Shown in pieces: positions 4,271 through 57,866 of a DNA stretch of 64,000 nucleotides (its first letter is position 1; each line of letters starts with the position of its first letter). The DNA is from Escherichia phage B9-1. The stretch lies in sequence record OQ420740.1, one strand, 5' to 3'. The notes beneath the pieces are model-generated. The model did not search any database and was not told where the DNA came from. It worked only from the letters and a program-made list of their open reading frames with translations. The position numbers and the translations under genes are program-made.

Positions 4271-4279
4271 GGAGAAATC

Positions 4280-28389: not shown

Positions 28390-28450
28390 TAAGATGTGAG
28401 TATAAAGGGGAGGCACTCCTCCCCACAAAAACTAAGGAGAGCACCAAACG

Positions 28451-31046: not shown

Positions 31047-31052
31047 CACTAG

Positions 31053-31080
31053 GCCCTGCCCGAAAGGGTGGGGCTTTTTG
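31053..31080 (+). terminator. rho-independent terminator (copy 1 of a duplicated hairpin)
   Basis: GCCCTGCCCGAAAGGGTGGGGC (9-bp stem with 2 G-U pairs, GAAA loop) then TTTTTG; same hairpin recurs at 41199. Confidence 0.65.
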
Positions 31081-38232: not shown

Positions 38233-38261
38233 TTGACAATAGCGATAGGGCCTAATATAAT
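38233..38261 (+). promoter_or_regulatory. consensus sigma70 promoter (TTGACA-17-TATAAT)
   Basis: Exact TTGACA at 38233-38238, 17-bp spacer, exact TATAAT at 38256-38261, upstream of ATG 38293. Confidence 0.6.
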
Positions 38262-38292
38262 GGCCCTATCAAAACGAAAGGGTACCACAGCA

Positions 38293-42895: not shown

Positions 42896-42920
42896 CAGCT
42901 ATATTTTAAGGTGGTATAGT
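42892..42920 (+). promoter_or_regulatory. sigma70-like promoter
   Basis: TTGACA, 17-bp spacer, TATAGT, ~30 nt upstream of ATG 42950. Confidence 0.5.
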
Positions 42921-42949
42921 CACCACAACGATTAAGACAGGGGAGCACT

Positions 42950-45514: not shown

Positions 45515-45699
45515 CCGTCACCGGTGCCTGCCGTCCTTTCGATAGGTATATTGTGCCACCTGGCGGGGCCGCTGTCAACACTTTTCAAAAAAATTCTAAC
45601 CTGATGCGCTAACCGTTGCAACCTGGCGGGGCCAGCCTGGCAGGGCTATGCTATAGGGTAGGCAACAACTGAAGAGGAGGTACAAAAATAAAAGGTAAT

Positions 45700-45867
45700 A
45701 TGATCCCTGGAAATGTAGCGATTAATGACGCTGAGGCTATCGCCCTGGTTGAAAAGGCTATGGCGGGAGCGTTGGAACATAAAGAAGAGTACGAAAAAAT
45801 GATGGTTAACCTGGCAGGGCGGCGGCTGGAGAATTCTGCCCAAAAAATAATTCTAACTAATGGTTGA
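45700..45867 (+). CDS. putative small protein (55 aa)
   Basis: ORF MIPGNVAINDAEAIALVEKAMAG... with coding-like composition; weak SD AAAGG; below track cutoff; overlapping antisense track ORF 45646..45843 looks spurious. Confidence 0.3.
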   Translation: MIPGNVAINDAEAIALVEKAMAGALEHKEEYEKMMVNLAGRRLENSAQKIILTNG

Positions 45868-45891
45868 CAGCTCGGATAGTTCTGTTATTCT
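45864..45891 (+). promoter_or_regulatory. sigma70-like promoter
   Basis: TTGACA, 16-bp spacer, TATTCT, ~50 nt upstream of ATG 45944. Confidence 0.45.
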
Positions 45892-45943
45892 TATCCTCGC
45901 AAGGTGAACAACACCACACTAATTAACAGAGAGGATAAAAATC

Positions 45944-46141
45944 ATGAACGCCTACGGAATTAAAGTACGTCGCAACACTCGCCAGGCCGTCACCGATCAA
46001 ATGATTTGCCAGGTGGACGTAACCATCAACAACGGGCAAGGCCTTTATAAATTCCGTCGCGGTCAGAGCTACACCCGGCAACAGCTTAATCGTTGCGCCC
46101 TGACAAAAGGCCAGATCAACCACTGGTTTAATAAAAAATAA
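45944..46141 (+). CDS. hypothetical small basic protein
   Basis: 65 aa; leader AGAGAGGATAAAAATCATG; antisense track ORF 45923..46123 rejected. Confidence 0.5.
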   Translation: MNAYGIKVRRNTRQAVTDQMICQVDVTINNGQGLYKFRRGQSYTRQQLNRCALTKGQINHWFNKK

Positions 46142-46144
46142 GTA

Positions 46145-46173
46145 TTGACATACAGTCTGACACCAAATACACT
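46145..46173 (+). promoter_or_regulatory. sigma70-like promoter
   Basis: TTGACA (46145-46150), 17-bp spacer, TACACT, ~30 nt upstream of ATG 46206. Confidence 0.5.
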
Positions 46174-46205
46174 AAAAGCACAAAAGACACTAAGAGGATA
46201 AAATC

Positions 46206-46604
46206 ATGAAAACCACTACCTTTAATTTTGATAATGCGGACTTTTCTTTTTCTGATGTCAAGAACTGCCGCCGTGATCGTGGATTTTACAAGGCTTATAA
46301 TCTGGTGGGCCTGGACGATGACAATAATTTGCACGAAGTAGCTGAGATCCGGTATTATGCCGCCGCCAGCGGGAACACTCAATACTGTGTTTTTTGGATT
46401 CACGACAACAAGAACAATAAGTACGGTTATACTGGCGGGAAGGCGAGCGGTCACGGTTACGATAAAGCTAATGCAGCACTTGAGAGCGCATTAAATGCTA
46501 TGGGGATCACTGCCAACGGCTGGATCTATGAAGAAGAGTTTTTGTCGGCACTTGCTAACCACCTGGGCTATAAAAAGCACATTGTAACATGCGCCCACGA
46601 ATAA
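46206..46604 (+). CDS. hypothetical protein
   Basis: 132 aa; leader TAAGAGGATAAAATCATG. Confidence 0.55.
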   Translation: MKTTTFNFDNADFSFSDVKNCRRDRGFYKAYNLVGLDDDNNLHEVAEIRYYAAASGNTQYCVFWIHDNKNNKYGYTGGKASGHGYDKANAALESALNAMGITANGWIYEEEFLSALANHLGYKKHIVTCAHE

Positions 46605-46610
46605 AAATTG

Positions 46611-46638
46611 TTGACACGCTGCAAAATTCAAGTAAACT
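46611..46638 (+). promoter_or_regulatory. sigma70-like promoter
   Basis: TTGACA (46611-46616), 16-bp spacer, TAAACT. Confidence 0.5.
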
Positions 46639-46648
46639 AATCACAAAA

Positions 46649-46667
46649 GGCGGGAATGTTTCCCGCC
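46649..46667 (+). other. 5' leader stem-loop
   Basis: GGCGGGAATGTTTCCCGCC, 7-bp stem, just downstream of the predicted transcription start and ~20 nt before ATG 46687; near-identical to the hairpin at 49189. Confidence 0.45.
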
Positions 46668-46686
46668 AACACAAAGGAAAAAGATC

Positions 46687-47091
46687 ATGAATAAGAACGT
46701 ACGCCGCATCATGAATGAACTGGCAAACGATGAAAAAATTATTGACATGCATTTGATCAACATTTGCCGCCGTTGTGTAACATATAACAACCGCGCCGCA
46801 AAAGCGCGTGAGATGAACGCAAAAGGCACCTTAAAGCCCTTCCAGGTGGTGGTAAAGGCCATTAAAGATGTAACTAATACGGCAAATCAGGTACAGGGGA
46901 ACACCAACGAAAGTACCAATATTGATCCGGCTTACATCATGAAACGGATCCGGACCTGCAAGAACAAAGAGCAGGTGTATAACGTCATAGACTGGTTGGA
47001 TTCCATGGGCGACGTGGTGTACAATAGGTTTTCTGCAGCTATCGAGATCCAGCTTGACAGGTTGGACGGTAAAGTACTGAAAACTTACTAA
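46687..47091 (+). CDS. hypothetical protein
   Basis: 134 aa; leader AAAGGAAAAAGATCATG. Confidence 0.55.
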   Translation: MNKNVRRIMNELANDEKIIDMHLINICRRCVTYNNRAAKAREMNAKGTLKPFQVVVKAIKDVTNTANQVQGNTNESTNIDPAYIMKRIRTCKNKEQVYNVIDWLDSMGDVVYNRFSAAIEIQLDRLDGKVLKTY

Positions 47092-47140
47092 GTTTATTTT
47101 TAGATGGCCTTGACTACAGGGCCATCAATAAAGTAAACTA
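47092..47140 (+). repeat. 46-bp repeated intergenic element, copy 1 (palindrome over a -35-like hexamer)
   Basis: GTTTATTTTTAGATGGCCTTGACTACAGGGCCATCAATAAAGTAAACT; 7-bp inverted repeat GATGGCC/GGCCATC encloses TTGACT. Confidence 0.5.
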
Positions 47141-47170
47141 ATCTCAGTTAAGCGAAAAAGGGGCTTTAAG

Positions 47171-47290
47171 ATGAGCACTACACGCCAATACACAAAGGTA
47201 ACTATTATCGCCTGCGTTGTCGGTTACATCCTGGCGCAAATGTTAATGAGTAGCGCTAACAGTTTTGCAAAATTTTTCTTAAATTTTTAA
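47171..47290 (+). CDS. putative hydrophobic micro-protein (39 aa)
   Basis: ATG after SD AAAGGGGC; MSTTRQYTKVTIIACVVGYILAQMLMSSANSFAKFFLNF; below track cutoff. Confidence 0.3.
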   Translation: MSTTRQYTKVTIIACVVGYILAQMLMSSANSFAKFFLNF

Positions 47291-47318
47291 TTGACAAGCT
47301 AACCCAAATCAGTATACT
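47291..47318 (+). promoter_or_regulatory. sigma70-like promoter
   Basis: TTGACA (47291-47296), 16-bp spacer, TATACT, then an imperfect hairpin CGGGAAAACTTCCCAG and SD AAAGGAGA before ATG 47370. Confidence 0.5.
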
Positions 47319-47369
47319 TAAACACGTAAACGGGAAAACTTCCCAGAACACACAAAAGGAGAAAACACC

Positions 47370-47711
47370 ATGACTACTATGACCGCCGCAGAAAAAGCTA
47401 TTCAGGTTGCCGCACTGAAAAAACAGATCGCAGACCTTGAGAACAAGATCGATAACTTTGAAATCGACGAGGACAAGTACGACGAAAACTATGATGAATG
47501 GTTAGACGAGGTCTACGGCGAAATCATGATCGGAAACATTTCTTTTCTTCCGTCGCGTATCCTCAAGGAGCTAGATCCTATCGCTTACCGCTGCGGATTT
47601 AGCGACTACATCGACAGCCTGGATATTGAGGACGATGAAGAGTACCAAGAATTGCAAACAGAGTTGGAAGAAGCAAAAGAAGAGCTTGCAGAACTGGAAG
47701 AAAACGAGTAA
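47370..47711 (+). CDS. hypothetical acidic coiled-coil protein
   Basis: 113 aa; Glu/Asp-rich with heptad-like spacing. Confidence 0.55.
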   Translation: MTTMTAAEKAIQVAALKKQIADLENKIDNFEIDEDKYDENYDEWLDEVYGEIMIGNISFLPSRILKELDPIAYRCGFSDYIDSLDIEDDEEYQELQTELEEAKEELAELEENE

Positions 47712-47760
47712 GTTTATTTTTAGATGGCCTTGACTCCAGGGCCATCAATAAAGTAAACTT
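47712..47760 (+). repeat. 46-bp repeated intergenic element, copy 2
   Basis: AGTTTATTTTTAGATGGCCTTGACTCCAGGGCCATCAATAAAGTAAACT, directly after the stop of 47370..47711. Confidence 0.5.
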
Positions 47761-47797
47761 TACACTGTTAACACTGAACTAATGAGGAGTTAAAACC

Positions 47798-48043
47798 ATG
47801 GCAGCACTAATCACCAAATACTATGCCCCTACCAACACCAAAAGCGCCCGGATCATGGTAAAAGGCTTCGGACGTAAAAAGGTTTACACCTGGGATTATT
47901 CCCTAGACATGGAAGACAACTACACCAACGCGATGACCGATTTTATTAACGAGCTGAATACGCGGATCTTAACAAATTATAAAATTACCGACATTGCTTA
48001 TATAGGTGAAGGCGGGATCTGTTTTGTAGGCATTGTGAAATAG
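47798..48043 (+). CDS. hypothetical small protein
   Basis: 81 aa, SD GAGGAG. Confidence 0.5.
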   Translation: MAALITKYYAPTNTKSARIMVKGFGRKKVYTWDYSLDMEDNYTNAMTDFINELNTRILTNYKITDIAYIGEGGICFVGIVK

Positions 48044-48095
48044 TTATTTTTTCGGTGGTCCTGGTTGCAGGGCCATCTATAAAAATAATTTACTA
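48044..48095 (+). repeat. diverged copy of the 46-bp intergenic element
   Basis: TTATTTTTTCGGTGGTCCTGGTTGCAGGGCCATCTATAAAAATAATTTACT, same T-run / inverted repeat / -10-like layout. Confidence 0.4.
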
Positions 48096-48118
48096 ACACC
48101 ATGAAAGGAGAAAGTAAC

Positions 48119-48472
48119 ATGATCAGCGGTGCAAGTTTTATTATTGGCGCTATTGCTACGGCTTTAATTGTAAACAAGATCCAATCCAAAAACGAAAAAG
48201 AGAGCAACGCCCTTGCAGAATATCCATTTTGGACATTTAACGATAACGAAGATTATATTATAAAGTATAAAAATAAAGAAGGTGACCAAGTAACACCGCG
48301 ACCGATCCCGGCTTACAAGATGCAGGAAACACTATACCGCCTGGAGGCGGGGGGCGCAAAAATTGTGGACTTTTGGGGATACGATCACACAGATCAGGAA
48401 GTTATAAAGCGCCGTATCCGGGCTATTCAGGCCAATATTGAAGTTAGCAAGGGGGGAATATATGAAGATTAA
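48119..48472 (+). CDS. hypothetical membrane-anchored protein
   Basis: ATG 48119 with SD AAAGGAGA (track start 48101 lacks an SD); N-terminal hydrophobic segment ISGASFIIGAIATALIV. Confidence 0.5.
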   Translation: MISGASFIIGAIATALIVNKIQSKNEKESNALAEYPFWTFNDNEDYIIKYKNKEGDQVTPRPIPAYKMQETLYRLEAGGAKIVDFWGYDHTDQEVIKRRIRAIQANIEVSKGGIYED

Positions 48473-48659
48473 TTTTGAGAAGATTGTAAAGCGATCTCAT
48501 GATTCCGAAGAGCTGCCGGAACGCCGCCAGCGTAACAATAAACTGAATAAGCCAAAAAGATTTGGAAAGATCTGGCGAAATCATTATGATCGTAAATTGC
48601 CTGGCCTACTTTTGGAACGTGAACGACAGGCAGAACGATACCGCCATAAAGACAAATAA
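48462..48659 (+). CDS. hypothetical small basic protein
   Basis: ATG 48462 with SD AAGGGGGG; overlaps the upstream gene by 11 nt. Confidence 0.4.
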   Translation: MKINFEKIVKRSHDSEELPERRQRNNKLNKPKRFGKIWRNHYDRKLPGLLLERERQAERYRHKDK

Positions 48660-48667
48660 CAACCAAC

Positions 48668-48696
48668 GCCCCGCCATTGTGCGGGGCTTTTTATTT
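48668..48696 (+). terminator. rho-independent terminator
   Basis: GCCCCGCCATTGTGCGGGGC (7-bp stem) followed by TTTTTATTT. Confidence 0.7.
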
Positions 48697-48840
48697 CTAT
48701 CCTACGAATAGCGCCCCTGGTTGGCCCTATAAGCGCCAAAAAGGCCCCCACCTATGCAATCCCCTTTCTTAACCTGAAAACATCGCCCAGGGCCGTTTTA
48801 TGGCGTTAAAAATATTATTGACAGTGATTTTATTTAAAGC

Positions 48841-48868
48841 TTGACATCTTAAACAGGTTAGCTATACT
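48841..48868 (+). promoter_or_regulatory. sigma70-like promoter
   Basis: TTGACA (48841-48846), 16-bp spacer, TATACT; a second TTGACA lies ~20 bp upstream. Confidence 0.5.
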
Positions 48869-48900
48869 AACCACATCAAAGAGAGAAAGGAGTAAACGCC

Positions 48901-49161
48901 ATGCGTAAATTAAAAAATTTTGATAAGGTTGATGTTGTCCTGAATAATTTTTACTACTGCAACAACAAGGCCATTTGGTGGCGTGATAGTTCCACCGATA
49001 AAGTCAAGGCGCGCTTTCTCCAGGGGCACTGGCAAGGCCGCCCAGTGATTAAAATCATGGGGCAATTGGTAGCGTTTAAAAATTGCCGCCGTGTTGATGA
49101 CGTTGAAGAGATCTTGAACATTTTACGCCACAATAATTTAAAAAATAGTGTTGACAAGTAA
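48901..49161 (+). CDS. hypothetical small protein
   Basis: 86 aa, SD AAAGGAG. Confidence 0.5.
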   Translation: MRKLKNFDKVDVVLNNFYYCNNKAIWWRDSSTDKVKARFLQGHWQGRPVIKIMGQLVAFKNCRRVDDVEEILNILRHNNLKNSVDK

Positions 49162-49178
49162 ATCTCGATAAGTATAAT
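49151..49178 (+). promoter_or_regulatory. sigma70-like promoter
   Basis: TTGACA (49151-49156), 16-bp spacer, exact TATAAT (49173-49178); overlaps the end of the upstream gene. Confidence 0.55.
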
Positions 49179-49188
49179 TAAACACACA

Positions 49189-49207
49189 GGCGGGAAAACT
49201 TCCCGCC
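49189..49207 (+). other. 5' leader stem-loop
   Basis: GGCGGGAAAACTTCCCGCC, perfect 7-bp stem, ~10 nt after the -10 and ~30 nt before ATG 49236. Confidence 0.45.
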
Positions 49208-49235
49208 ACTAACAAAGAAAACAGGAGAAAATATC

Positions 49236-49859
49236 ATGACCACCGTTAACATTACCACAGGTTACAATTTATCTTTCGACGTGCTGACCGACGAACAAAA
49301 AGAAAAAGCCGTTGAAATGGTCCGCGAAAGAGAAGAACACAGCGGGGATAACTTTTTTGCAGAAAGTGTAATTGAATACTATAAAGAATATGTTTTTCCA
49401 GAGTATGGCCTTGAAGATACCGAAGTACATTGGTCCGGCTTTTGGTGCCAGGGTGACGGCGCGTCAATCAGTGCTGAAAACGTTGATTTAGAAAAATTCT
49501 TGCGTAAAGTCAAATCTCTGACTAAATTCCGCTCAATTCGTAACTTGTTCGGCACAATGCACGATGGCGAGCTATCTGCAAGTGTTGAGCGTGATCCATA
49601 TAGCCGCCATAGTCACGAAAACACTGTAAGCGGGTACATTGATACTACATGGCTAGACCTGACAGCCAAGCAAGAAAGTAAGGTTGAAGAGCTGGAAGAG
49701 CTGATCACCGAGACGGTACGGGAGCTATCCCGCAAGGTTTATGTAGACCTGGAGGAGGCCTATCTTGAACAGTTTACTACCGAAAACCTGATCGGCCTTA
49801 TTGAAGCCAATGATTGGCGGTTTAATGTGGATGAATATGGGGAGATGAGTTTTTCATAA
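49236..49859 (+). CDS. hypothetical protein
   Basis: 207 aa; SD ACAGGAGA; no family recognised by eye. Confidence 0.55.
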   Translation: MTTVNITTGYNLSFDVLTDEQKEKAVEMVREREEHSGDNFFAESVIEYYKEYVFPEYGLEDTEVHWSGFWCQGDGASISAENVDLEKFLRKVKSLTKFRSIRNLFGTMHDGELSASVERDPYSRHSHENTVSGYIDTTWLDLTAKQESKVEELEELITETVRELSRKVYVDLEEAYLEQFTTENLIGLIEANDWRFNVDEYGEMSFS

Positions 49860-49867
49860 ATAAAGTG

Positions 49868-49895
49868 TTGCAATAATCTAAAAACCTGCTATATT
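49868..49895 (+). promoter_or_regulatory. sigma70-like promoter
   Basis: TTGCAA, 16-bp spacer, TATATT, followed by hairpin GGGGCGAGATGACTTGCCCC and leader AAAGAGGATAACATCATG. Confidence 0.45.
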
Positions 49896-49948
49896 AAAAC
49901 TCAAGGGGCGAGATGACTTGCCCCACACAAAACAAAGAGGATAACATC

Positions 49949-50329
49949 ATGAAAAACACCACCAAGGCTATTGACACCGTTATGTTTAACCTGGTTACAT
50001 TCCGTGAAGATATGAAAGATCTTCCACGTGAAACAGTGTGCGACCATATCGAAAACTATCGCAAACTTATTAAAGAATTGCCATTAAAACGAGATCAGTA
50101 CGCGGCTAACGCTATGCTTAACGCCATGATCAAAAAGATGATCCAGTGTGATTTAACTCTGGCCTATGATTATGCAGGTGGTCGTTTTGCAGTATACAAT
50201 CAGCCCGTGCCTGGTATGAGCACCACCGAAGAATTGCACGCGCTCAATCTAAAACAAGACGTGTGGGATAATATGCCCCGCGTGGTGGTGTGGGCAGAAA
50301 GCGGAAAGATTTACGGCGATAATTTTTAA
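49949..50329 (+). CDS. hypothetical protein
   Basis: ATG 49949 with SD AAGAGGA (track start 49913 lies in the promoter/hairpin). Confidence 0.5.
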   Translation: MKNTTKAIDTVMFNLVTFREDMKDLPRETVCDHIENYRKLIKELPLKRDQYAANAMLNAMIKKMIQCDLTLAYDYAGGRFAVYNQPVPGMSTTEELHALNLKQDVWDNMPRVVVWAESGKIYGDNF

Positions 50330-50395
50330 TCAGGTAACAGGCGGCGGCATATTTGCCGCCCTATTGTTAAGAAGAATTGTAAGAGGGTACATAGA

Positions 50396-50767
50396 ATGGA
50401 ATTTATTATTTTGGCTATATTAGTTGCCTTGTTTAACGCCTGGATCGCTGGCAAGATGGGCAGATCTGCCTTTTTATGGTTTATTATATCTATCTTCCTG
50501 GGAGTGGTTGCAACTATTGTATTGGTTATCCTTGCAATTGTTGATAAGGGGAATAATAGAAAGGGTAAAGTATTTTCAGACCTGTACGACGCTCAAACAT
50601 TTGTCAACGCCTACTACAGCGATCTTCCAGTCTCCCTACGTTGCAGCCTTGCACAACAGGTTTTCGATGAAGCTAAAACCAGAGATCACGCCCATGAGAT
50701 ATGTTTAACTGAGGCGGATCGCCTATTTGAGAGGAATAGAAAATATGTGGACCAACCGTTTAAATAA
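50396..50767 (+). CDS. hypothetical membrane protein
   Basis: 123 aa; two hydrophobic helices (FIILAILVALFNAWIA, FLWFIISIFLGVVATIVLVILAIV). Confidence 0.5.
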   Translation: MEFIILAILVALFNAWIAGKMGRSAFLWFIISIFLGVVATIVLVILAIVDKGNNRKGKVFSDLYDAQTFVNAYYSDLPVSLRCSLAQQVFDEAKTRDHAHEICLTEADRLFERNRKYVDQPFK

Positions 50768-50966
50768 TGCCACGTTAATTAATCCCTTTAGTGAAGATTT
50801 GAAGCCAGCCGCCTGGCGTGATGGATTCAATAACGAAAGCTTTATTTTCAGGCCTGATCTTAAGGAATTTTATAACAATGGATCGAACAACGACAGAGAT
50901 AATTTTTCTCGTAATGTGCGTGGCGATAATACTCCTGGGGGCCATTGCAAACCACGTCACTGCTAA
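50745..50966 (+). CDS. hypothetical small protein (uncertain)
   Basis: ATG 50745 with SD GAGAGGA; conflicts with an alternative-frame hydrophobic ORF (MDRTTTEIIFLVMCVAIILLGAI, ending 51003); the real gene is not resolved. Confidence 0.3.
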   Translation: MWTNRLNNATLINPFSEDLKPAAWRDGFNNESFIFRPDLKEFYNNGSNNDRDNFSRNVRGDNTPGGHCKPRHC

Positions 50967-50986
50967 CAGGAGGGAAGGGGGAGACG

Positions 50987-51106
50987 ATGACACCCAAGGA
51001 TAAGCCCCGCACCGATAAGGCGCGCCGTGTTATGGTATGGCTTGAGATCATCGCCCTTGAAATATTGTTAGGCGTAGGGATGTATTTTATCGCTGTAAGT
51101 AACTGA
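50987..51106 (+). CDS. putative hydrophobic micro-protein (39 aa)
   Basis: ATG after SD GGGGGAG; MTPKDKPRTDKARRVMVWLEIIALEILLGVGMYFIAVSN; followed by a terminator. Confidence 0.3.
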   Translation: MTPKDKPRTDKARRVMVWLEIIALEILLGVGMYFIAVSN

Positions 51107-51110
51107 TAAC

Positions 51111-51150
51111 GGCCCCCGATCCCTGGGGGCCTAACTTTTTAAATTTTTTC
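51111..51150 (+). terminator. rho-independent terminator
   Basis: GGCCCCCGATCCCTGGGGGCC hairpin followed by TAACTTTTTAAATTTTTT. Confidence 0.65.
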
Positions 51151-51160
51151 TCCCTGGGTG

Positions 51161-51189
51161 TTGCAATCCGATCCAGAATATGGATAATA
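51161..51189 (+). promoter_or_regulatory. sigma70-like promoter
   Basis: TTGCAA, 16-17-bp spacer, GATAAT, then hairpin GGGGAGCAATCCCC and leader AAAAAGGAGAAACAAAATG; shares AATATGGATAATAA with the promoter at 51975. Confidence 0.45.
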
Positions 51190-51243
51190 ACAATCAACGG
51201 GGAGCAATCCCCACCAACACAAAGACTAAAAAGGAGAAACAAA

Positions 51244-51444
51244 ATGAGCAACAATATCCGCGTTATTAACTTCAAAAAAGAAGAAAAAATTGCCGTGCTG
51301 ATTGACGGTCAAGAAATCTTTAAAGGCGATTATGAAGATCATCAGGTAGCGATCAGTATTACCCGCGTGATTGGTTACCATAATTTTTACCCCCAAGGCG
51401 CTGAGGCAGCAGTAAAACGAATTAAAGAGATTGTAGGCCTGTAA
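51244..51444 (+). CDS. hypothetical small protein
   Basis: 66 aa, SD AAGGAGA. Confidence 0.5.
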   Translation: MSNNIRVINFKKEEKIAVLIDGQEIFKGDYEDHQVAISITRVIGYHNFYPQGAEAAVKRIKEIVGL

Positions 51445-51491
51445 AATTTATTTTTAGATGGCCTTGACTCCAGGGCCATCAATAAAGTAAA
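51445..51491 (+). repeat. 46-bp repeated intergenic element, copy 3
   Basis: AATTTATTTTTAGATGGCCTTGACTCCAGGGCCATCAATAAAGTAAA, identical core to 47712..47760. Confidence 0.5.
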
Positions 51492-51528
51492 TTTAAACCC
51501 TGTTAAAATAATCAGTGCAAAAGGAGTA

Positions 51529-51834
51529 ATGATCATGTTTATCCAGGCTAATAATCTTTATTTCTTTGATGGTCAGATCGTAGACGGCGTGGAGGTGGAA
51601 ATCACCGGGTGCCCTGGCGGTCAGGTTATGACTTTTCGGAATAATGCCTTTGATGATTCTCATATCGTTATGAGAATGGAAGTTAGTAAGCTGGACGATA
51701 AGAAAACACTCATTGATTATTCCGTGAAAGATCATCCAGACTACCACATGATCTATGGCGATTTGTGCATTGTTGACCGTGACAAGGTGGGCGGCATTGT
51801 GATCGCTATTGTGAACGATGTTTTCTCTAAATAA
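51529..51834 (+). CDS. hypothetical protein
   Basis: 101 aa, SD AAAGGAG (second ATG at 51535 also possible). Confidence 0.5.
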   Translation: MIMFIQANNLYFFDGQIVDGVEVEITGCPGGQVMTFRNNAFDDSHIVMRMEVSKLDDKKTLIDYSVKDHPDYHMIYGDLCIVDRDKVGGIVIAIVNDVFSK

Positions 51835-51974
51835 TTCCGGCAAATGATGCAAAATAAGGCCCCTGGCAGGGCCTGCAGCGATATAATCACATAAAGGCTA
51901 TGCGGTTGCATGGCCTTTATTATTTTAGCGTTACAGCTGCCCCCAAGGCGCTTAAAAAATTTTTAAAGAAGTAC

Positions 51975-52002
51975 TTGCATCAAGTCCTACAATATGGATA
52001 AT
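51975..52002 (+). promoter_or_regulatory. sigma70-like promoter
   Basis: TTGCAT, 16-bp spacer, GATAAT, ~60 nt upstream of ATG 52064. Confidence 0.45.
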
Positions 52003-52063
52003 AAAGGGTGTCGGGGGGCGGTGAGGCCTCCAATCATTAACCAGATAGATAGGAGTTAAAACC

Positions 52064-52348
52064 ATGGCTATTGTTACCGTTGGCGATGTAGTAGAAATGG
52101 AAGCCAAATACTTAAAAGCGGGTATGCATATCATACGGAATGATCAAGAATTGTTATTAACCATGGTTGAATATAATCCCGGTCAGGATTATCCTAGCGT
52201 TGACTACTTTTTCCAGTATGTTGATGAAGAATTAAAAGAGGATGAGGCTTATCAGGGTGAATTTTGCAATTTCTTTTGCTCTGACGAGGTTGTAAAAGTT
52301 ATTTATCAACCTGGTGTACCTTTCCCGTTGCACGCCATCAATAAATAA
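52064..52348 (+). CDS. hypothetical small protein
   Basis: 94 aa, SD TAGGAG. Confidence 0.5.
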   Translation: MAIVTVGDVVEMEAKYLKAGMHIIRNDQELLLTMVEYNPGQDYPSVDYFFQYVDEELKEDEAYQGEFCNFFCSDEVVKVIYQPGVPFPLHAINK

Positions 52349-52414
52349 GCCTGGCGGGGCCGAAAAGGCCCCTCCTGAAATTATGAAAAAAAAAATAAAG
52401 AGGGGTGAATCATC

Positions 52415-52651
52415 ATGATTGAACAAATTAAAAGCACTAAACCGAACGTTAACGGCAATGTTTCTCACTTTATTGGTGATAATGAAAGAGGGACACCGTA
52501 CGCTGCGGTAACAGTTCAACCGAACGGGGATTATTGGTTTACTGTATATGGATCTTATTCTTTTGGGCGTCCGGTGCATGATAGAATTTTAAAAGTAGCT
52601 AATCCGACCGGGAAGAATATCACAGCAGAAAAATTTTTTGAAAATAGTTGA
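52415..52651 (+). CDS. hypothetical small protein
   Basis: 78 aa, SD AAGAGGGG. Confidence 0.5.
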   Translation: MIEQIKSTKPNVNGNVSHFIGDNERGTPYAAVTVQPNGDYWFTVYGSYSFGRPVHDRILKVANPTGKNITAEKFFENS

Positions 52652-52675
52652 CATGACCGTATAAGACTGTAGTAT
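52648..52675 (+). promoter_or_regulatory. sigma70-like promoter
   Basis: TTGACA, 16-bp spacer, TAGTAT, then hairpin GGGGGCAAGCCCC and leader AAAGAGGATAAAAATCATG. Confidence 0.45.
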
Positions 52676-52723
52676 ATAAATCAAAGGGGGCAAGCCCCAC
52701 CAACCACAAAGAGGATAAAAATC

Positions 52724-52903
52724 ATGGCTATTATTGCAAAGACCGAGATTGTAGGGTTAGATTCTATTCTCCTGGCATATGAGGAGGCTATAGAAATGTA
52801 TGTGGTTTCCTATGGTGAGTATATCCGTGAATATAAATCTATTGATCTAGCTTTTGAATGTTATATTCGCCAGGTCAATAAAGCATATGATGATTATCGT
52901 TAA
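52724..52903 (+). CDS. putative small protein (59 aa)
   Basis: ATG after the conserved leader AAAGAGGATAAAAATC; one residue under the track cutoff. Confidence 0.4.
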   Translation: MAIIAKTEIVGLDSILLAYEEAIEMYVVSYGEYIREYKSIDLAFECYIRQVNKAYDDYR

Positions 52904-52995
52904 AATAGTTTGACAACAAACAACACCGTCTAACAAAGCATAATACATAAGGTGGTGGAATGGTCCGCCACCTGGAGCAAGAAGAGGAAAACAAG

Positions 52996-53100
52996 ATGAA
53001 ACAGAAATTAATTGATGCGATGATCCTGGTTATTGCCCTGGGTATTGGCCTGATTGCAACCATGGCTAATATGATCTTGTCTTCCAACGGTATCGGATAA
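52996..53100 (+). CDS. putative transmembrane micro-protein (34 aa)
   Basis: ATG after SD GAAGAGGAAA; MKQKLIDAMILVIALGIGLIATMANMILSSNGIG; preceded by hairpin GGTGGTGGAATGGTCCGCCACC. Confidence 0.35.
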   Translation: MKQKLIDAMILVIALGIGLIATMANMILSSNGIG

Positions 53101-53109
53101 GGTGGGCAA

Positions 53110-53325
53110 ATGATCACCAACAAAACAGGCAAAACAGAATTTTTACGCAACTTGCAGATCGGCAAGCCTGAGATCTGGTATTGCACTAAAACACCACGTG
53201 ACGAAATGAAAGATTTTACCGCCACGCTGAAGCGGGTAAAGATATCTATCACGCAGAAAAAAGCCTTGATAGTGGTTGAAGGTGAGATCCCTCAAGCCGT
53301 TGTTATAGTTGAGCGTACAGCATAG
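53110..53325 (+). CDS. hypothetical small protein
   Basis: 71 aa ORF. Confidence 0.45.
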   Translation: MITNKTGKTEFLRNLQIGKPEIWYCTKTPRDEMKDFTATLKRVKISITQKKALIVVEGEIPQAVVIVERTA

Positions 53326-53416
53326 TTTAATTTATACAGATACCCGAAAATTAACCAACAAAGCATAAACAGGCGGTTACTGCCGCCTTAAACGTAGCAG
53401 AAAGAGGATAGACACA

Positions 53417-53701
53417 ATGAAAAAGATGATCGCAGTGGTTGCCCTGGTTGTTGGACTTAATGCGCCTGTAATGGCTAAAGAGTTGGCAAAAGAGGTAGAT
53501 CTAACTGATATCCATGCCGTCAATCAAATCGGGGTTACTTATCGCCTATGCCTTGCCGCAAAAACTTTTAAGGACGGCACTACAGAGTACTACGGATTCG
53601 AGGGCGTCCGGTGCGGTGAACTTGCTCGCGACCTTAAAGAAGATCCAGACCTGGAGGATCTGCCGATAACCGTAAACGGGAAAACTTACGTGAACCGTTA
53701 A
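53417..53701 (+). CDS. secreted small protein
   Basis: 94 aa; SD AAAGAGGA; signal-peptide-like N-terminus MKKMIAVVALVVGLNAPVMA. Confidence 0.5.
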   Translation: MKKMIAVVALVVGLNAPVMAKELAKEVDLTDIHAVNQIGVTYRLCLAAKTFKDGTTEYYGFEGVRCGELARDLKEDPDLEDLPITVNGKTYVNR

Positions 53702-53703
53702 CC

Positions 53704-53838
53704 ATGAGAAAGATAATTATTACCATAGGGATCGTGGCGGCAATGTTGGCGATCTTTCCCCTTATGGTTAGGTATGTGCTGATCAGTGTTGTCCTGGTAG
53801 TCAGCGATCTAATGTTATATATTAACTCATTGTTTTAG
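53704..53838 (+). CDS. putative hydrophobic micro-protein (44 aa)
   Basis: ATG 2 nt after the upstream stop; MRKIIITIGIVAAMLAIFPLMVRYVLISVVLVVSDLMLYINSLF; no clear SD. Confidence 0.3.
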   Translation: MRKIIITIGIVAAMLAIFPLMVRYVLISVVLVVSDLMLYINSLF

Positions 53839-53846
53839 GTGGAATA

Positions 53847-54038
53847 ATGACAGCAGAAGAAGTTAAAAAAGTACTGGCAGTACTGCGCTACCATAATCAC
53901 AGAAAGGTAATAGATGATCCTGATTATGTAGATTCAAGCCTAGAAGAGGATACACTACAAGCTATCAGCCATATGCAAGAATTGTTTAAGCGTATGACAG
54001 AGAAGAACAGATCCGACTACATAGGCGAAAAAATATAA
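53847..54038 (+). CDS. hypothetical small protein
   Basis: 63 aa, SD AGGTGG. Confidence 0.45.
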   Translation: MTAEEVKKVLAVLRYHNHRKVIDDPDYVDSSLEEDTLQAISHMQELFKRMTEKNRSDYIGEKI

Positions 54039-54056
54039 TCCTTAAATACTATAAAG

Positions 54057-54083
54057 CAGGGCTTGCAACGGTCCTGTTTTTTG
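54057..54083 (+). terminator. putative rho-independent terminator
   Basis: Short hairpin CAGGGCTTGCAACGGTCCTG followed by TTTTTTG. Confidence 0.45.
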
Positions 54084-54118
54084 TTACACTTGTTTCACGG
54101 GTGGCACCTGGCGACGGG

Positions 54119-54134
54119 GGGAGACAATCACCGG
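54119..54134 (-). repeat. GC-rich conserved element, inverted copy 3
   Basis: GGGAGACAATCACCGG is the reverse complement of the core at 45365-45380; flank CCCCGTCGCCAGGTGCC resembles copy 2; sits just upstream of the promoter at 54167. Confidence 0.5.
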
Positions 54135-54166
54135 GCCTGCCTGTCATATAAAAACTATAAAAACCG

Positions 54167-54195
54167 TTGACACCTGCCAGGCGGTGGGGTAACAT
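54167..54195 (+). promoter_or_regulatory. sigma70-like promoter
   Basis: TTGACA, 17-bp spacer, TAACAT, then hairpin GGGCAAAAGTGCCC and leader AGAAGAGAGGAAAACGCCATG. Confidence 0.5.
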
Positions 54196-54249
54196 TTATC
54201 TTGAAGGGGCAAAAGTGCCCACACAACAACCAGAAGAGAGGAAAACGCC

Positions 54250-54522
54250 ATGTTAGGCTGGATTAACCAAGAAGTCGAATCACGTTTTAACGCTATTTGG
54301 GATCTCATCGAAAAAGAGGACGGAACATCAAGCCCTTATCTCAATAATCTTGAATTCCATTTCGTGGAAGCGATGAACGCAGAACATGATCACGAAGGTG
54401 GTGCGGACGAGTTCGCTAAAGGGTATGGCTTCAACAATGCCAACGAAATGATCGAGGCGGTTGTACTCCAGGCTGAGGAAGATTATCAATTAAAAACGCT
54501 TGAATTCTGCCGCCGTAAGTAA
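54250..54522 (+). CDS. hypothetical small acidic protein
   Basis: 90 aa. Confidence 0.5.
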   Translation: MLGWINQEVESRFNAIWDLIEKEDGTSSPYLNNLEFHFVEAMNAEHDHEGGADEFAKGYGFNNANEMIEAVVLQAEEDYQLKTLEFCRRK

Positions 54523-54584
54523 TAAGATAATGACACGGGCCAAAAGGCCCACTAAACCAGGACCACATAAAGAGGAAAAACATC

Positions 54585-54848
54585 ATGAAACGTCTGGATC
54601 AGCTCAAACTAGTTCAGTACATGGCTTACAAAATTCTTGAAGTCCAAAAAGGTAGCAAAAAAGAAGTTTGCGAGAAAGCTTACAAGATCTTTACTCGCAA
54701 AAAAGACGATTGGATGTTACGCCAGACTAAAAAGGCTGATATCTTGGGGTGCCTGGAAGAAGAGATCCGGCTTGAAGAACAAGAAGAGATCCGCCGTAGT
54801 GAGGCAGATTATCAGGCAGCTTGGGAAAACTGGATGAGCAACAAATAA
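54585..54848 (+). CDS. hypothetical small protein
   Basis: 87 aa, SD AAAGAGGAAA; the overlapping track ORF 54637..54837 in another frame is rejected. Confidence 0.5.
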   Translation: MKRLDQLKLVQYMAYKILEVQKGSKKEVCEKAYKIFTRKKDDWMLRQTKKADILGCLEEEIRLEEQEEIRRSEADYQAAWENWMSNK

Positions 54849-54914
54849 TACAACAAGCTACATGGTCAGGGGCAATAAAGCCCCTTGATCACATAAAAAT
54901 TATGCTATCCTTGG

Positions 54915-54943
54915 TTGACAGGGATCGGCAGTTTTGCTATATT
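54915..54943 (+). promoter_or_regulatory. sigma70-like promoter
   Basis: TTGACA, 17-bp spacer, TATATT, ~50 nt upstream of ATG 54993. Confidence 0.5.
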
Positions 54944-54992
54944 CTTTTTTGAAGGGAAGTTGTAAGAAAATTAACTAAGAGGTAAAAACACC

Positions 54993-55412
54993 ATGAACAT
55001 TAAATCTGATAATCCGGCATATAGCTTTGATAACGCTTTTTGTCACGGTCCGGCGGCGAAAGGATTCGAAATCGATGGTAAACTAGTTATTGTTAATGTT
55101 GACGGGGAAGAGGTTGCAGTATATCCGGTGGCAGACGTTAAAAGCCGTCTACAATGCCGCATGGATGTTACCGCCTACCAGCTTGATCCGGTCCGGGTAG
55201 TTGCCCTAGTCCTGGAAGAAGAAATTAAAGCAATGCACCACAGCAACAAGTTTATTGGTGACGCTCAAGATAATATGCAGGTATGCCGCCATAAAGTTAA
55301 TGAAGTACTTAAAGAGTACGGCTATAAGGATTTAATGATCAAGCGTGATGAAAAATTCCGTTACCGTAACGACCTGGCAAATCGGATTTTTGAAATATAC
55401 GAATCATTATAA
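54993..55412 (+). CDS. hypothetical protein
   Basis: 139 aa, SD TAAGAGG; last gene of the rightward array. Confidence 0.55.
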   Translation: MNIKSDNPAYSFDNAFCHGPAAKGFEIDGKLVIVNVDGEEVAVYPVADVKSRLQCRMDVTAYQLDPVRVVALVLEEEIKAMHHSNKFIGDAQDNMQVCRHKVNEVLKEYGYKDLMIKRDEKFRYRNDLANRIFEIYESL

Positions 55413-55430
55413 TTTCTTAACTGAATTATC

Positions 55431-55458
55431 AAGGGGCTTAAAGGCCCCTTTCTTTTTG
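55431..55458 (+). terminator. rho-independent terminator
   Basis: AGGGGCTTAAAGGCCCCT hairpin followed by TTCTTTTTG, 20 nt after the stop at 55412. Confidence 0.7.
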
Positions 55459-56074
55459 TCTGCTCTTCTCCTACCATAAACGGCCCTACCTGGCAAGTGG
55501 AATAATTGACTAGCCATCAATCCCACACACTGTACAAATATACATATAAAATAACTATTGCATAATCTTTCACTGTGTGGTAGCAGGGCCATTTTTACCC
55601 GTTTTCTCTCCCAAAAGTGCACGTAATGCCGCTATTGCACAAATTTTAACCTGATGCACATCTCCAATATCTTGTCAACAACTAAAAATCTTTATAAGTC
55701 ATACACTTACACAACATAGAAAGCGTGTCCTACGCGAAAAATCGAGTATAACTATAGCCGCCAGATCTCAGAATTCACGTACGAACACCATTCTATAGTC
55801 TGCAAAGTATTTATTCCAACCACAGAATAACGGAATAGTCAATACCTGCATAAAATAATTATTCGTGTAAACTGCATAACATAAATCAGCTCAGGTGTCA
55901 ACATTTTTCGTAAACAGTCCGAAATTATCACGATGAGTTATCATAAACAGAGAAATCTTTAGTCGTCTAATGTTTACTGTACATTACTATACTGACTGGA
56001 ATCATTAGATGACTAAGAGAAAGATAAGAAATAATTAATAATGTAATTGTTTTACCTGTAACAATAAGGCAACT

Positions 56075-56094
56075 ATGCAAACGAATGGCATGGC
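56075..56094. repeat. 20-bp direct repeat, copy 1
   Basis: ATGCAAACGAATGGCATGGC, identical copy 213 bp downstream. Confidence 0.6.
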
Positions 56095-56213
56095 GCGACG
56101 GAGTCGCGACATAATATAAAAGCAGTAACAATCACCCCCGTGATAGTTTTTCTGCAATCTATTACTCAGATCATAGTTGCCTTGTATTTAGTTAATCATG
56201 ACATAACAAGCAA

Positions 56214-56241
56214 GGCAACTATAGATCTTCTAATAGTTGCC
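56214..56241. repeat. 28-bp palindrome
   Basis: GGCAACTAT AGATCTTCTA ATAGTTGCC: perfect 9-bp inverted arms; the same arm sequence (AGGCAACTAT / ATAGTTGCCT) also occurs at ~56066 and ~56172. Confidence 0.55.
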
Positions 56242-56287
56242 CTGCTTTTATATTATGTCATAGATTGTTAGCTTGTTAATTGTTTTC

Positions 56288-56307
56288 ATGCAAACGAATG
56301 GCATGGC
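56288..56307. repeat. 20-bp direct repeat, copy 2
   Basis: ATGCAAACGAATGGCATGGC. Confidence 0.6.
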
Positions 56308-56333
56308 TTATCATCTCTGTGTAAACTGTTCAG

Positions 56334-56359
56334 GCGTAAACAGTCTATGCGTAAACAGT
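56334..56359. repeat. tandem 11-bp iterons (GCGTAAACAGT x2; third copy at 56653-56663)
   Basis: GCGTAAACAGT at 56334-56344 and 56349-56359, preceded by inverted partial TGTAAACTGTT; third copy at 56653. Confidence 0.55.
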
Positions 56360-57866
56360 GAGATATGGAATAGTAACAGCCGTTATTGTGTCATATTGTG
56401 TGACATTGTGTCCGGTGTCTGGTGTCCAGTGTGTCAGACAAGTTTTTCTCCTCTTTGTCAAGTGCTGCATGAAAAATTTACAAACTGGTATGGTAGCATT
56501 TTTGCGGCCCTGTTTACATTCAGGAATGTATGTATAATCCTTGTTGTGTGGGCGTTTAGACGTCTGGACGGTCAGAAGTCTGCAGGTCAATATCTAATCT
56601 ATTGGTTGCTAACTATATCCCACACAAATAGTAAGAAATATAATTGTTATATGCGTAAACAGTAACCCATGTTATCAATCCCTGCATGTATCGCCAGTGG
56701 TGCGCATAATGGGTATTATGTTAAATTGCCCGTAATGATAACCATTCTCACAATGATAGGTATTCTCATTCACTCCCACAAGATAGATTGCAAATGTTGT
56801 GCCACTGTGTGAACGGCCTGGCCTATTAATTTGCCTCACTGCCTCGATATTTGAGAATTATTATAAAAATGAGAAGTATTCCCATTCCGTCCGCCTGGCA
56901 GCACTCCTGTAGGACAGGCACAAAATCGGGGTATAACTGGACCTGTTCAGATATTTCTGGCTGACTCTTCAGGCCTGTGTGGGAAAAGCCAACCTCTCCG
57001 GCGGCGGGGAGGGGTCAATTAAAAAATTTACGTGGTGTATGAAGCGCTCTTCAGGTAAGGCAGGTATTATGGGATGAAACCCTCTTCAGATGATGATATT
57101 TGTGGGTGTGATATTTGCTGGAAAGCCAGATATGACGGGACTCCCGGCAGGGGTGGGGTAGTACAGACAGGGAAAATGTGGGAATGTGATGGAGTAAATT
57201 GATCAGGTAGGTAGGATATGGAATATGTTACAAGTATGTTAAATATGGAGGTAGGATATTTGTAAGATTTGTGTGTAAAATCAAATACTTAAGTGGTGTT
57301 GTGGTATTTTCTATAAATAATTCAAGTTTAATAGGTGATATTTGTCTCCATCCACTTTGTGTGGTAAACAGATTCTAATTGAATTGGTTTACAAGTGTAT
57401 ATAAAGTATACAAATTAAAGATATAAGAAACCCCCCTCCCCCTTCGGCTACCATTCACCTTTTCCTCTGACTGGTACTTAAACACTTATTCAGACTCTTC
57501 AGGTTATCACCCATATACTATATGGCAGTGACTGGTGTCCTCCGGCCCCTCTTTCGTCACCCGTCCGCTTCGCCATGCTAATGCCATAGCCAAATGTTCG
57601 GTTGTTCACCCTGTTCACTCAGGTGTATCTCCATACCCCTTCAAACCGAAGAGAACAGAAAACCCGAATTACTCGGTAAAAGAAAAGAGAAGAACTTAAT
57701 TTTATCAAGATAGGCAAGAATGTCAAGGGATGACTGCTCACTAAACAAGCAAACAGTCATGTGTGGTGGGTAAGTAACTGTGTTGGTAGGAAATTTAGTT
57801 GAAAGATGTTATAGGTGCCTCCAGAACCTTAGCTGGGCAGCTAAACCTGCAAAGCAGACTTGTGTG

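Follow-up and report, generated by a model that had tools for sequence, protein, structure and literature searches.

Recurrent promoter-hairpin-leader cassettes in the early gene array of an rV5-like coliphage

Positions 45700-55458 of the 64,000-nucleotide (nt) stretch of Escherichia phage B9-1 analysed here (OQ420740.1; henceforth the window) hold an array of small genes among which promoters, short GC-rich stem-loops and leaders recur in the same order. What kind of element is this cassette, and what would a stem-loop do between a strong promoter and the gene that it serves? A first-pass annotation had described about 30 small genes, each with a duplicated regulatory cassette. The cassette array is a real and statistically solid feature of a known phage group; the elements and positions described were confirmed, while the spacing (9-13 nt), the number of genes (28) and the word "each" had to be corrected. 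Judged by its 92-96% nucleotide identity to known genomes, the window is that of a Vequintavirus, an rV5-like coliphage. A megablast search with 45700-55458 against GenBank phages matched 251 records, the top matches spanning the full length, with Escherichia phage S127 BCL3 (96%) and the type phage rV5 (92%) as the best matches. We used GenBank phage records for comparison after an IMG/VR search with the gene-11 protein returned only two close loci.

Promoters, hairpins and repeats in the array

Promoters and hairpins were both strongly over-represented in the array. On the plus strand of 45700-55458 we identified 11 sites matching at least 10 of the 12 sigma70 consensus positions, and none on the minus strand, compared with an expectation of 1.73 +/- 1.25 (maximum 6) from 300 first-order Markov simulations. 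TTGACA occurred 14 times on the plus strand and twice on the minus strand, with 3.3 occurrences expected. Once extended -10 and TTGACT variants were included, the intergenic promoters numbered 15, in agreement with the earlier claim of at least 13 near-consensus promoters in 10 kb, and upstream A/T runs were visible before promoters. The 30 nt beginning 6 nt past the -10 box had a mean folding free energy (dG) of -6.7 kcal/mol, compared with -3.0 for all segments of the region (P=4e-5), and 22 of the 32 hairpins with a dG of -9 or lower were intergenic, where only 23.5% of the sequence lies (P=7e-8). The suspected duplication of the regulatory cassette was recovered as repeat families D1, D2, D3, D6 and D10, which include a 63-nt element with three copies (81-90%) and a degenerate fourth (D1) and a 66-nt promoter-hairpin-leader pair shared by the g6 and g11 cassettes (D6; 74%). 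Leader families of 20-25 nt have 3-5 copies, and the shared A-rich leader of ACAAAGAGGATAAAAATCATG type proved to be a true repeat family.

The cassette is not present before every gene. Among the 21 intergenic spacers of at least 60 nt, 18 carry a GC hairpin (dG -5 to -18). Eight are canonical, with promoter, 9-13 nt, hairpin and leader (g4, g6, g11, g12, g16, g18, g20 and g26), so that the distance from the -10 box to the hairpin is shorter than the 10-25 nt after the promoter first proposed; three others have the canonical layout with a weak or scarred promoter (g21, g23 and g27). In a second class, class 2, the hairpin wraps the -35 box (g5, g7, g17, g28 and a degenerate g8), two spacers have a hairpin and no promoter (g13 and g19), and three have a promoter without an adjacent hairpin (g2, g3 and g10). 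Six genes are translationally coupled to the preceding gene and have no cassette.

In order to describe the geometry of the hairpin, we used 40 cassettes from the window, Justusliebigvirus alia and Phapecoctavirus ESCO13. The hairpin lay 10.0 +/- 1.1 nt from the -10 box and 21.3 +/- 4.2 nt from the ATG, and the smaller standard deviation (1.1 vs 4.2 nt) indicates that it is anchored to the -10 box and not to the start codon. The 8-nt tail after the hairpin was A/C-rich, held a mean of 1.25 T and lacked a U-tract; neither the hairpins downstream of a promoter (class 1) nor those of class 2 were directly followed by the U-tract expected of a terminator. When 5' untranslated regions (UTRs) were folded from a predicted start set 7 nt past the -10 box, 3-7 unpaired nt preceded the hairpin and an open leader followed it, with a mean unpaired probability of 0.6-0.95 round the Shine-Dalgarno (SD) sequence.

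At g12, g16 and g18 the orthologous hairpins from nine Vequintaviruses came in five, six and nine variants, respectively, and the g4 hairpin of phage MiataMamis had a wholly different sequence. The variants differed in arm sequence, loop sequence and loop length, including loop indels (insertions or deletions), and yet every one folded (-5 to -22 kcal/mol). This variation with pairing kept points to selection on pairing, not on a sequence recognized by a protein; the hairpin persists as a structure although its sequence turns over. No consensus structure emerged when the 40 cassettes were aligned with MAFFT and passed to RNAalifold, since the cassettes vary in stem and loop length and the alignment had no structure awareness; we therefore relied on folding of individual orthologues and on distance statistics. 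At the gathering threshold, Rfam gave no match in the whole 64-kb window, and a scan for tRNAs found none. Among Vequintaviruses 87-96% identical to one another, hairpin loops and inner stems (52014-52031, 49905-49924 and 51199-51212) were the most variable intergenic positions; their changes, some of them indels (GCAA is duplicated at 52686, for example), suggest slippage or conversion at palindromes. The plus strand has no Chi site, which we checked on account of the GGTGGTGG arm at 52952.

Part of this picture was already known. The array is the reverse complement of rV5 ORF164-197 (ORF, open reading frame), with orthologous genes, and the rV5 GenBank record already assigns six sigma70-type promoters to the matching part (P195B, P195A, P192, P186, P168 and P164). 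The rV5 genome paper lists 33 sigma70-type promoters and 20 terminators genome-wide, treats ORFs 10-1-238-164 as one transcription unit and makes no mention of post-promoter hairpins (PMC3606486). A promoter array before short hypothetical genes was thus known for rV5, and such arrays are also known from Certrevirus (PMC7344957) and from RaK2-like jumbo phages (PMC5259590). Comparison with rV5 and its relatives supports reading the region as the early arm, driven by sigma70 promoters, of an rV5-like phage.

Gene exchange and related cassettes in other phages

Gene content differed among eight relatives, which we compared by colinear BLAST before reading the junction sequences, and the indels fell at a few recurrent sites where the junctions bear 12-32-nt repeats in the -35 box or leader. 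The g10 spacer is an indel hot spot, with an additional 255 nt in S127 and 538 nt in MiataMamis and the 12-nt repeat ATATYWTTGACA at both junctions; the 255-nt gene of S127 is flanked by two ATATYWTTGACA copies, and the window retains a tandem -35 scar (48818/48841). At g27, a gene indel of 271-279 nt (279 nt in rV5, Mangalyan and ECO111) is bracketed by two ACCACAYAAAGAG leader repeats, and a 291-nt gene of ECP2303 is flanked by two AGAAGAG..AAACACCATGAAA leaders. Further gene indels are located at 51842-51848 (344 nt), just upstream of the hairpin at 51857-51874 and the predicted terminator T3, and at 54040-54078 in the region of terminator T4 (292-352 nt), and the g21 cassette is an indel hot spot in four relatives. 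The remaining indels begin 1-10 nt from a stop codon. Genes inserted in phage BP9 come with their own promoter, 10 nt and hairpin. Whole-gene indels would be expected to be intergenic regardless; the informative part is the duplicated cassette sequence at both junctions.

Exchange also crosses subfamily boundaries. In Vequintavirus NHEP1, homology to the window stops exactly at the TTGACA of the g20 promoter (P20) and is followed by a 598-bp two-gene block that is 96.5% identical to alia, a phage of another subfamily, and whose right end lies in another TTGACAACAA cassette. These alignments show promoter and leader repeats at the junctions of gene gain, loss and transfer between subfamilies. 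A tblastn search with gene 26 (E <= 1e-5) gave no RB49 homologue among the matches listed, and the note in the rV5 record of similarity to RB49 proteins was not used as evidence of exchange with T4-type phages.

The same cassette predominates in the early regions of other large coliphages. We counted 12 copies in the phi92-like Justusliebigvirus alia and 19 in the phAPEC8-like Phapecoctavirus ESCO13, built as TTGACA-N16/17-TAnnnT, GTATCACATA, GGGCGG(G/C)AAT(G/A)GT...CCGCTC and ACAACAGAAGAGA...ATG, a design more regular in these distant phages than in the window. In the terminal-repeat early region of Asteriusvirus vB_Ec-M-J (378 kb), 7 of 11 spacers have the cassette design, with hairpins of the CGGGAA-NNN-TTCCCG type seen at 46649, 47332 and 49189 in the window, and a 94-nt ESCO13 cassette used as a query matched 528 places in 142 phage records. 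In the literature searched on rV5-, PVP-SE1-, phi92-, phAPEC8- and RaK2-like phages we found promoter lists and no description of the hairpin, and so the hairpin-leader design and its spread across Vequintavirinae, Stephanstirmvirinae and Asteriusvirus are apparently undescribed there; most promoters of the rV5-like phage are already annotated.

Several observations on these related phages stand apart from the argument. Homologues of genes 11 and 12 (49285-50330) are present, with nucleotide identity of about 67%, in the direct terminal repeats of Asteriusvirus jumbo phages of 350-380 kb, and those homologues (vB_Ec-M-J 1701-4399) are likewise preceded by promoter-hairpin-leader cassettes. The record of vB_EcoM_ASO2A (MZ726793) annotates seven "rho-independent terminators" (WebGeSTer/TransTermHP) at 376-2283, 10-15 nt before the starts of coding sequences. 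One of them lies 12 nt past an annotated promoter and about 12 nt before the coding sequence, where a terminator would defeat that promoter; these are probably cassette hairpins that were mis-annotated. Between 17 and 23 GenBank records of the MG0656xx series are named "Campylobacter phage", with Campylobacter jejuni as the host, and are 92-99% identical to this coliphage group, and nine further "Campylobacter phage" records match the phAPEC8-type cassette. The Campylobacter host attribution of the MG0656xx records looks doubtful.

The closest known element is the PeSL (promoter-early stem-loop), a composite of early promoter and stem-loop that flanks ORFans in hyperplastic regions of T4-type phages and has been described in RB49/phi1, PST/T4 and nt-1/KVP40 (Arbiol 2010, PMC2839356; Comeau 2014, PMC4122927). 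PeSLs fall into five positional subclasses, were shown to promote and reported to terminate transcription, and were proposed to drive modular shuffling and mini-circle formation (PMC2839356, PMC4122927). Shared with PeSLs are the near-consensus sigma70 promoter with AT-rich upstream sequence, the G(n)-loop-C(n) stem-loop, the strong SD and the 60-90-nt spacers, the presence of many divergent copies in a genome, set among the small ORFans of its hyperplastic early region, the bounding of indels between close relatives, and the occurrence of several stem-loop positions relative to the promoter within one genome. The hosts of the cassette, in contrast, are Vequintavirinae, Stephanstirmvirinae and Asteriusvirus and not Straboviridae or T4-type myoviruses. 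In our direct scan of RB49, hairpins lay in the -35/-10 spacer (TTGACAggggatcaccgatccccTATAAT) or round the -10 box (gggagtagTAAGATactccc), and thus within the promoter in the commonest arrangements, whereas hairpins of the main class here follow the -10 box at a distance of 10 +/- 1 nt and are therefore predicted to be transcribed from their own promoter. A minority of hairpins overlap the promoter as in RB49 (five spacers, and one at 38233 upstream). A further difference is that the hairpins here lack a U-tract and that separate predicted terminators are present. The cassette is, as far as its sequence tells, PeSL-type in kind, differing by lineage and by a stem-loop that is predicted to be transcribed.

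Strong promoters with hairpins enclosing the -10 box, the RB49-type PeSL geometry, also occur farther up the early arm (38233-38274, 37034-37075 and 42892-42925), for example ATAGGGCC-TAATATAAT-GGCCCTAT at 38250-38274, and a canonical cassette with a downstream hairpin lies at 28367-28424.

As self-contained expression units, each with one small accessory gene, that are gained or lost between relatives, the cassettes also recall the lambdoid morons (promoter-gene-terminator). Unlike morons, they are co-oriented in long arrays, mostly lack a terminator of their own and share repeated linkers that would serve as crossover sites.

Candidate roles of the hairpin

On balance we favour, with confidence little above even, the reading that the array consists of modular early-expression cassettes in which the hairpin is an RNA decay barrier or insulator and not a terminator. 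The early arm would be hyperplastic, assembled from repeated exchangeable expression cassettes, each comprising an AT-rich upstream stretch, a near-consensus sigma70 promoter, about 10 nt, a 13-26-nt GC-rich stem-loop, an unstructured, G-poor leader (about 21 nt) that carries a strong SD, and then the ATG of a small ORF. Unmodified host RNA polymerase would read the promoters, and a start about 7 nt past the -10 box would place the hairpin some 3-7 nt from the mRNA 5' end, where in primary transcripts it could hinder 5'-end-dependent attack involving RppH and RNase E. In read-through transcripts, cleavage in the AU-rich promoter RNA would leave a downstream cistron that begins with the same hairpin, which on such processed RNA would also shield neighbouring cistrons. 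Termination would be left to five separate T-run hairpins. That the hairpin is anchored to the -10 box, free of a U-tract and followed by an unstructured leader fits a 5'-terminal stabiliser or processing site, a role that the first-pass annotation had suggested and that we consider plausible.

There is precedent for such protection in the 5' stem-loops of the ompA and papA mRNAs (Emory, Bouvet and Belasco 1992, as cited in PMC3997798). The cassettes resemble these in having a GC hairpin that lies a few nt from the predicted 5' end and precedes an unstructured leader and an SD. They differ in that the start is predicted, in the 3-7 unpaired nt, and in that hairpins are also found where a 5'-terminal position is impossible.

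Several points weigh against a stabilising or insulating hairpin. In the literature searched we found neither mapped transcript ends (5' or 3') nor half-lives or reporter results for these phages, and searches for transcript mapping in Vequintavirinae and Stephanstirmvirinae gave no usable data. The predicted 3-7 unpaired 5' nt lie at or beyond the limit of about 2-4 nt that the Belasco laboratory's work reportedly sets on protection, and such a number may prevent full protection. Spacers with a decayed promoter or none (g13, g19, g21, g23 and g27) also retain hairpins, and in the five spacers where the hairpin wraps the -35 box it cannot be at the 5' end of its own transcript; nor can a function tied solely to the primary 5' end be general when the RB49 PeSL hairpin lies within the promoter. 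Hairpins in promoter-less spacers and the RB49 layout together imply that any role extends past the primary 5' end. Common descent of cassette copies, and not selection, could partly account for the constant 10-nt spacing. Lastly, the sense RNA was predicted to be more stable than its reverse complement in 17 of 22 informative unique hairpins, with the reverse in 5 (P=0.016; 12 G-U pairs), which gives weak support to an RNA over a DNA structure, and this test is itself a weak one on non-independent data points.

We regard as unlikely the original view of PeSL stem-loops, by which the hairpins would attenuate or terminate transcription and in this way damp the read-through that comes from the many promoters upstream. 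One RB49 PeSL stem-loop lowered lacZ expression as strongly as rrnB T1 (Arbiol et al., PMC2839356), although that assay does not distinguish termination from RNA destabilisation. Hairpins also occur in nearly all spacers whatever the position of the promoter, promoter-less spacers included, and MZ726793, a Phapecoctavirus record, annotates the equivalent hairpins as WebGeSTer rho-independent terminators. But class-1 hairpins sit between a consensus promoter and its own gene, where efficient termination would defeat the promoter, and their 8-nt tails are A/C-rich, with a mean of 1.25 T. The five hairpin-plus-T-run terminators in the same 10 kb indicate that the phage terminates by a different signal. 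The class-2 stem-loops (47103, 47723, 51457 and 54903) resemble promoter-coupled terminators in overlapping the next -35 box (Fletcher et al. 2026, bioRxiv 10.64898/2026.08.19.745784). In coupled terminators the T-tract after the stem forms the spacer (bioRxiv 10.64898/2026.08.19.745784), and as the class-2 spacer here is AATAAAG, it has no plus-strand terminator signature.

A still less probable explanation places the palindromes at the DNA level only, as recombination or template-switch hot spots, selfish linkers that spread cassettes and ORFs with no role in RNA. The coincidence of cassettes with indel and transfer junctions would suit this explanation, as would the mapping of RB49 PeSL mini-circle crossovers to the stem-loop (PMC2839356) and the hypervariability of hairpin loops among close relatives, which is what slippage-prone palindromes would show. 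The junctions that we mapped, however, lie in -35 box or leader/SD repeats and not in hairpins, the G-U pairs and sense-strand stability favour an RNA structure, and recombination requires no tight anchoring of the hairpin to the -10 box.

We see only a slender chance that the stem-loop of CGGGAA-NNN-TTCCCG type, near +4, goes beyond a generic structure and serves a pan-coliphage early-expression cassette (Vequintavirinae, Stephanstirmvirinae and Asteriusvirus) as a common 5'-UTR signal, passed horizontally between phages and read by a specific host or phage factor that would, for example, time the stability or the shut-off of all early mRNAs together; if true, this would amount to a new post-transcriptional regulon across unrelated large phages. 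Slimmer again is the prospect of a specific binding site, either as an operator spanning +4 to +24 or as an RNA hairpin, through which a phage or host protein would shut off or anti-terminate the early genes at a given time. The CGGGAA-NNN-TTCCCG core and its flanks (GTATCACATA-GGGCGG...) are strongly conserved in dozens of copies in phi92-like, phAPEC8-like and Asteriusvirus phages, but gene conversion between cassettes would equally explain conservation within a genome. The hairpins also occupy the place, just past the -10 box, where operators such as lacO1 are found. In the window, however, arms and loops vary between cassettes, as do arm sequence, loop sequence and loop length between orthologues, with pairing kept, which is a poor fit to a sequence-specific dimeric binder, and no Rfam family matched. 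Each of these three rivals (attenuator or terminator, DNA-level palindrome, binding site) is weakened by the data, and the roles may overlap, as they are not mutually exclusive.

The hairpins recall the RNase III hairpins of T7 in being intercistronic elements of early transcripts made by host polymerase that possibly leave stable processed mRNAs. RNase III sites, however, are about 20 bp long with an internal loop, and the stems here have 4-10 bp; readings as an RNase III site, boxB/nut or an operator were rejected on stem length and for want of a conserved sequence.

Layout of the array and wider meaning

The array comprises 28 co-oriented small genes on the plus strand (45700-55412; 34-207 aa), and not quite the 30 first reported, each ORF having an SD. 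Genes g1 to g10 start at 45700, 45944, 46206, 46687, 47171, 47370, 47798, 48119, 48462 and 48901; g11 to g20 at 49236, 49949, 50396, 50745, 50987, 51244, 51535, 52064, 52415 and 52724; and g21 to g28 at 52996, 53110, 53417, 53704, 53847, 54250, 54585 and 54993. The statement that these are mostly unknown small proteins was upheld: all 28 matched PHROG families of unknown function, the 10 largest had no significant Pfam match (two matches only, both far below threshold), and sequence searches of the Protein Data Bank (PDB) with four of the proteins found no match. Roles in host takeover or anti-defence are pure conjecture, as no finding here bears on either.

All cassettes and terminators lie on the plus strand. 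The hairpins quoted earlier were all recovered, two of them in the canonical cassettes of g4 and g11 and the others at 49905, 51199, 52686, 52950 and 54207. The g4 cassette (46611-46686) has its promoter at 46611-46638, 10 nt, the hairpin GGCGGGAATGTTTCCCGCC at 46649-46667 (-13.1) and a leader, and that of g11 (49151-49235) has a perfect consensus promoter (49151-49178), 10 nt, GGCGGGAAAACTTCCCGCC at 49189-49207 and a leader. The g6 cassette (47291-47369; rV5 P192) combines a promoter at 47291-47318, 13 nt, the hairpin GGGAAAACTTCCC at 47332-47344 and a leader. Three canonical promoters carry a TG: TTGCAA-16-TATATT for g12 (49868-49948; promoter 49868-49895, 9 nt, hairpin 49905-49924, leader), TTGCAA-16-GATAAT for g16 (51161-51243; promoter 51161-51188, 10 nt, hairpin 51199-51212, leader) and TTGCAT-16-GATAAT for g18 (51975-52063; promoter 51975-52002, 11 nt, hairpin 52014-52031, leader). 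The g20 cassette (52648-52723) has a promoter at 52648-52675, 10 nt, a hairpin at 52686-52698 and a leader, and that of g26 (54167-54249; rV5 P168) a promoter at 54167-54195, 11 nt, a hairpin at 54207-54220 and a leader.

Weaker versions of this layout precede g21, g23 and g27. The scarred g21 cassette (52910-52995) has TTGACAACAA (52910), a 23-nt gap, CATAAT (52939-52944), a hairpin at 52950-52973 and a leader; the decayed g23 cassette (53364-53416) has CATAAA, a hairpin at 53371-53388 and a leader; and the weak g27 promoter, TTGAAT-17-TAAGAT (54500-54528), is followed by 8 nt, a hairpin at 54537-54550 and a leader (54500-54584). Hairpins without a promoter lie upstream of g13 (GGCGGCGGCATATTTGCCGCC, 50340-50360, kept in nine genomes) and g19 (GGCGGGGCCGAAAAGGCCCCTCC, 52353-52375). 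Promoters without a strong hairpin are TTGACA-16-TATTCT before g2 (45864-45891; cassette with leader 45864-45943; rV5 P195B), TTGACA-17-TACACT before g3 (46145-46173; with a 26-nt leader and no hairpin, 46145-46205; rV5 P195A) and that of g10 (48841-48868), whose hairpin-free cassette (48818-48900; rV5 P186) has tandem -35 boxes at 48818 and 48841.

Among the class-2 cassettes, g5 (47089-47170; D1) has the hairpin GATGGCC-TTGACTACAG-GGCCATC at 47103-47126, the loop of which holds the -35 box of the promoter TTGACT-18-TAAACT (47110-47139). The g7 (47709-47797) and g17 (51443-51534) cassettes, also D1, have hairpins round the -35 box at 47723-47746 and 51457-51480, with promoters at 47730-47759 and 51464-51493. 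The degenerate g8 cassette (48048-48118; D2) retains its hairpin (48054-48077, -16.4) and has a decayed -35 box (TGGTTG). The g28 cassette (54863-54992; rV5 P164) has an upstream hairpin (54863-54891), a promoter (54915-54943) with its -35 box in the loop of the hairpin at 54903-54930, and a leader.

Five T-run hairpins look like true intrinsic terminators, and would split the array into about five units. T1 (48668-48696) is formed by GCCCCGCCATTGTGCGGGGC and TTTTTATTT, and T2 (51111-51150) by GGCCCCCGATCCCTGGGGGCC and T-runs; T3 (51891-51920 plus TATTTTA) follows a hairpin at 51857-51874 (together 51857-51927); T4 (54053-54087) has a stem and TTTTTTGTT; and T5 (55431-55458) lies at the array end. 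Elsewhere in the window, an 11/12 promoter, TTGACA-17-TACAAT, is followed after 21 nt by a strong hairpin with a T-run (GGCCCTGCCCGAAAGGGTGGGGCTTTTTG; 31002-31080), which could yield a short transcript (about 45-50 nt), act as a leader attenuator, or just be the terminator of the upstream gene placed past the promoter.

Three further observations concern the array and its flanks. Within the 3' end of the gene 23 coding sequence, a cassette-like fragment (CGTAAACGGGAAAACTTACGTGAAC, 53671-53695) is 88% identical to 47325-47349 and may either survive from an old junction or have arisen by chance. The motif CCTGGCGGGGCC occurs at 45559, 45622 and 52349, always in a hairpin of GGGGCC/GGCCCC type (45554-45644 and 52349-52375), and two of its copies sit in the spacer directly upstream of the first array gene. 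Beyond the array, about 2.4 kb without a convincing ORF (55413-57800) separates convergent plus- and minus-strand gene arms, corresponds to the "non-coding" box of the rV5 map and contains short tandem repeats at 56321-56359 (15-nt unit) and 56384-56412 (10-nt unit).

These findings extend the PeSL idea past the T4-type phages, with cassettes that appear to double as linkers for ORFan shuffling in at least three other groups of large coliphages, and NHEP1 and alia provide a concrete case of cassette-bounded exchange between subfamilies. They also draw attention to a very regular 5'-UTR design, with a hairpin at a predicted position of about +4 followed by an unstructured leader, and offer a simple rule by which early transcription units could be annotated across hundreds of genomes of rV5-like and phi92-like phages. 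If the hairpin does stabilise or insulate early mRNAs, the cassettes would be portable expression units for phage engineering.

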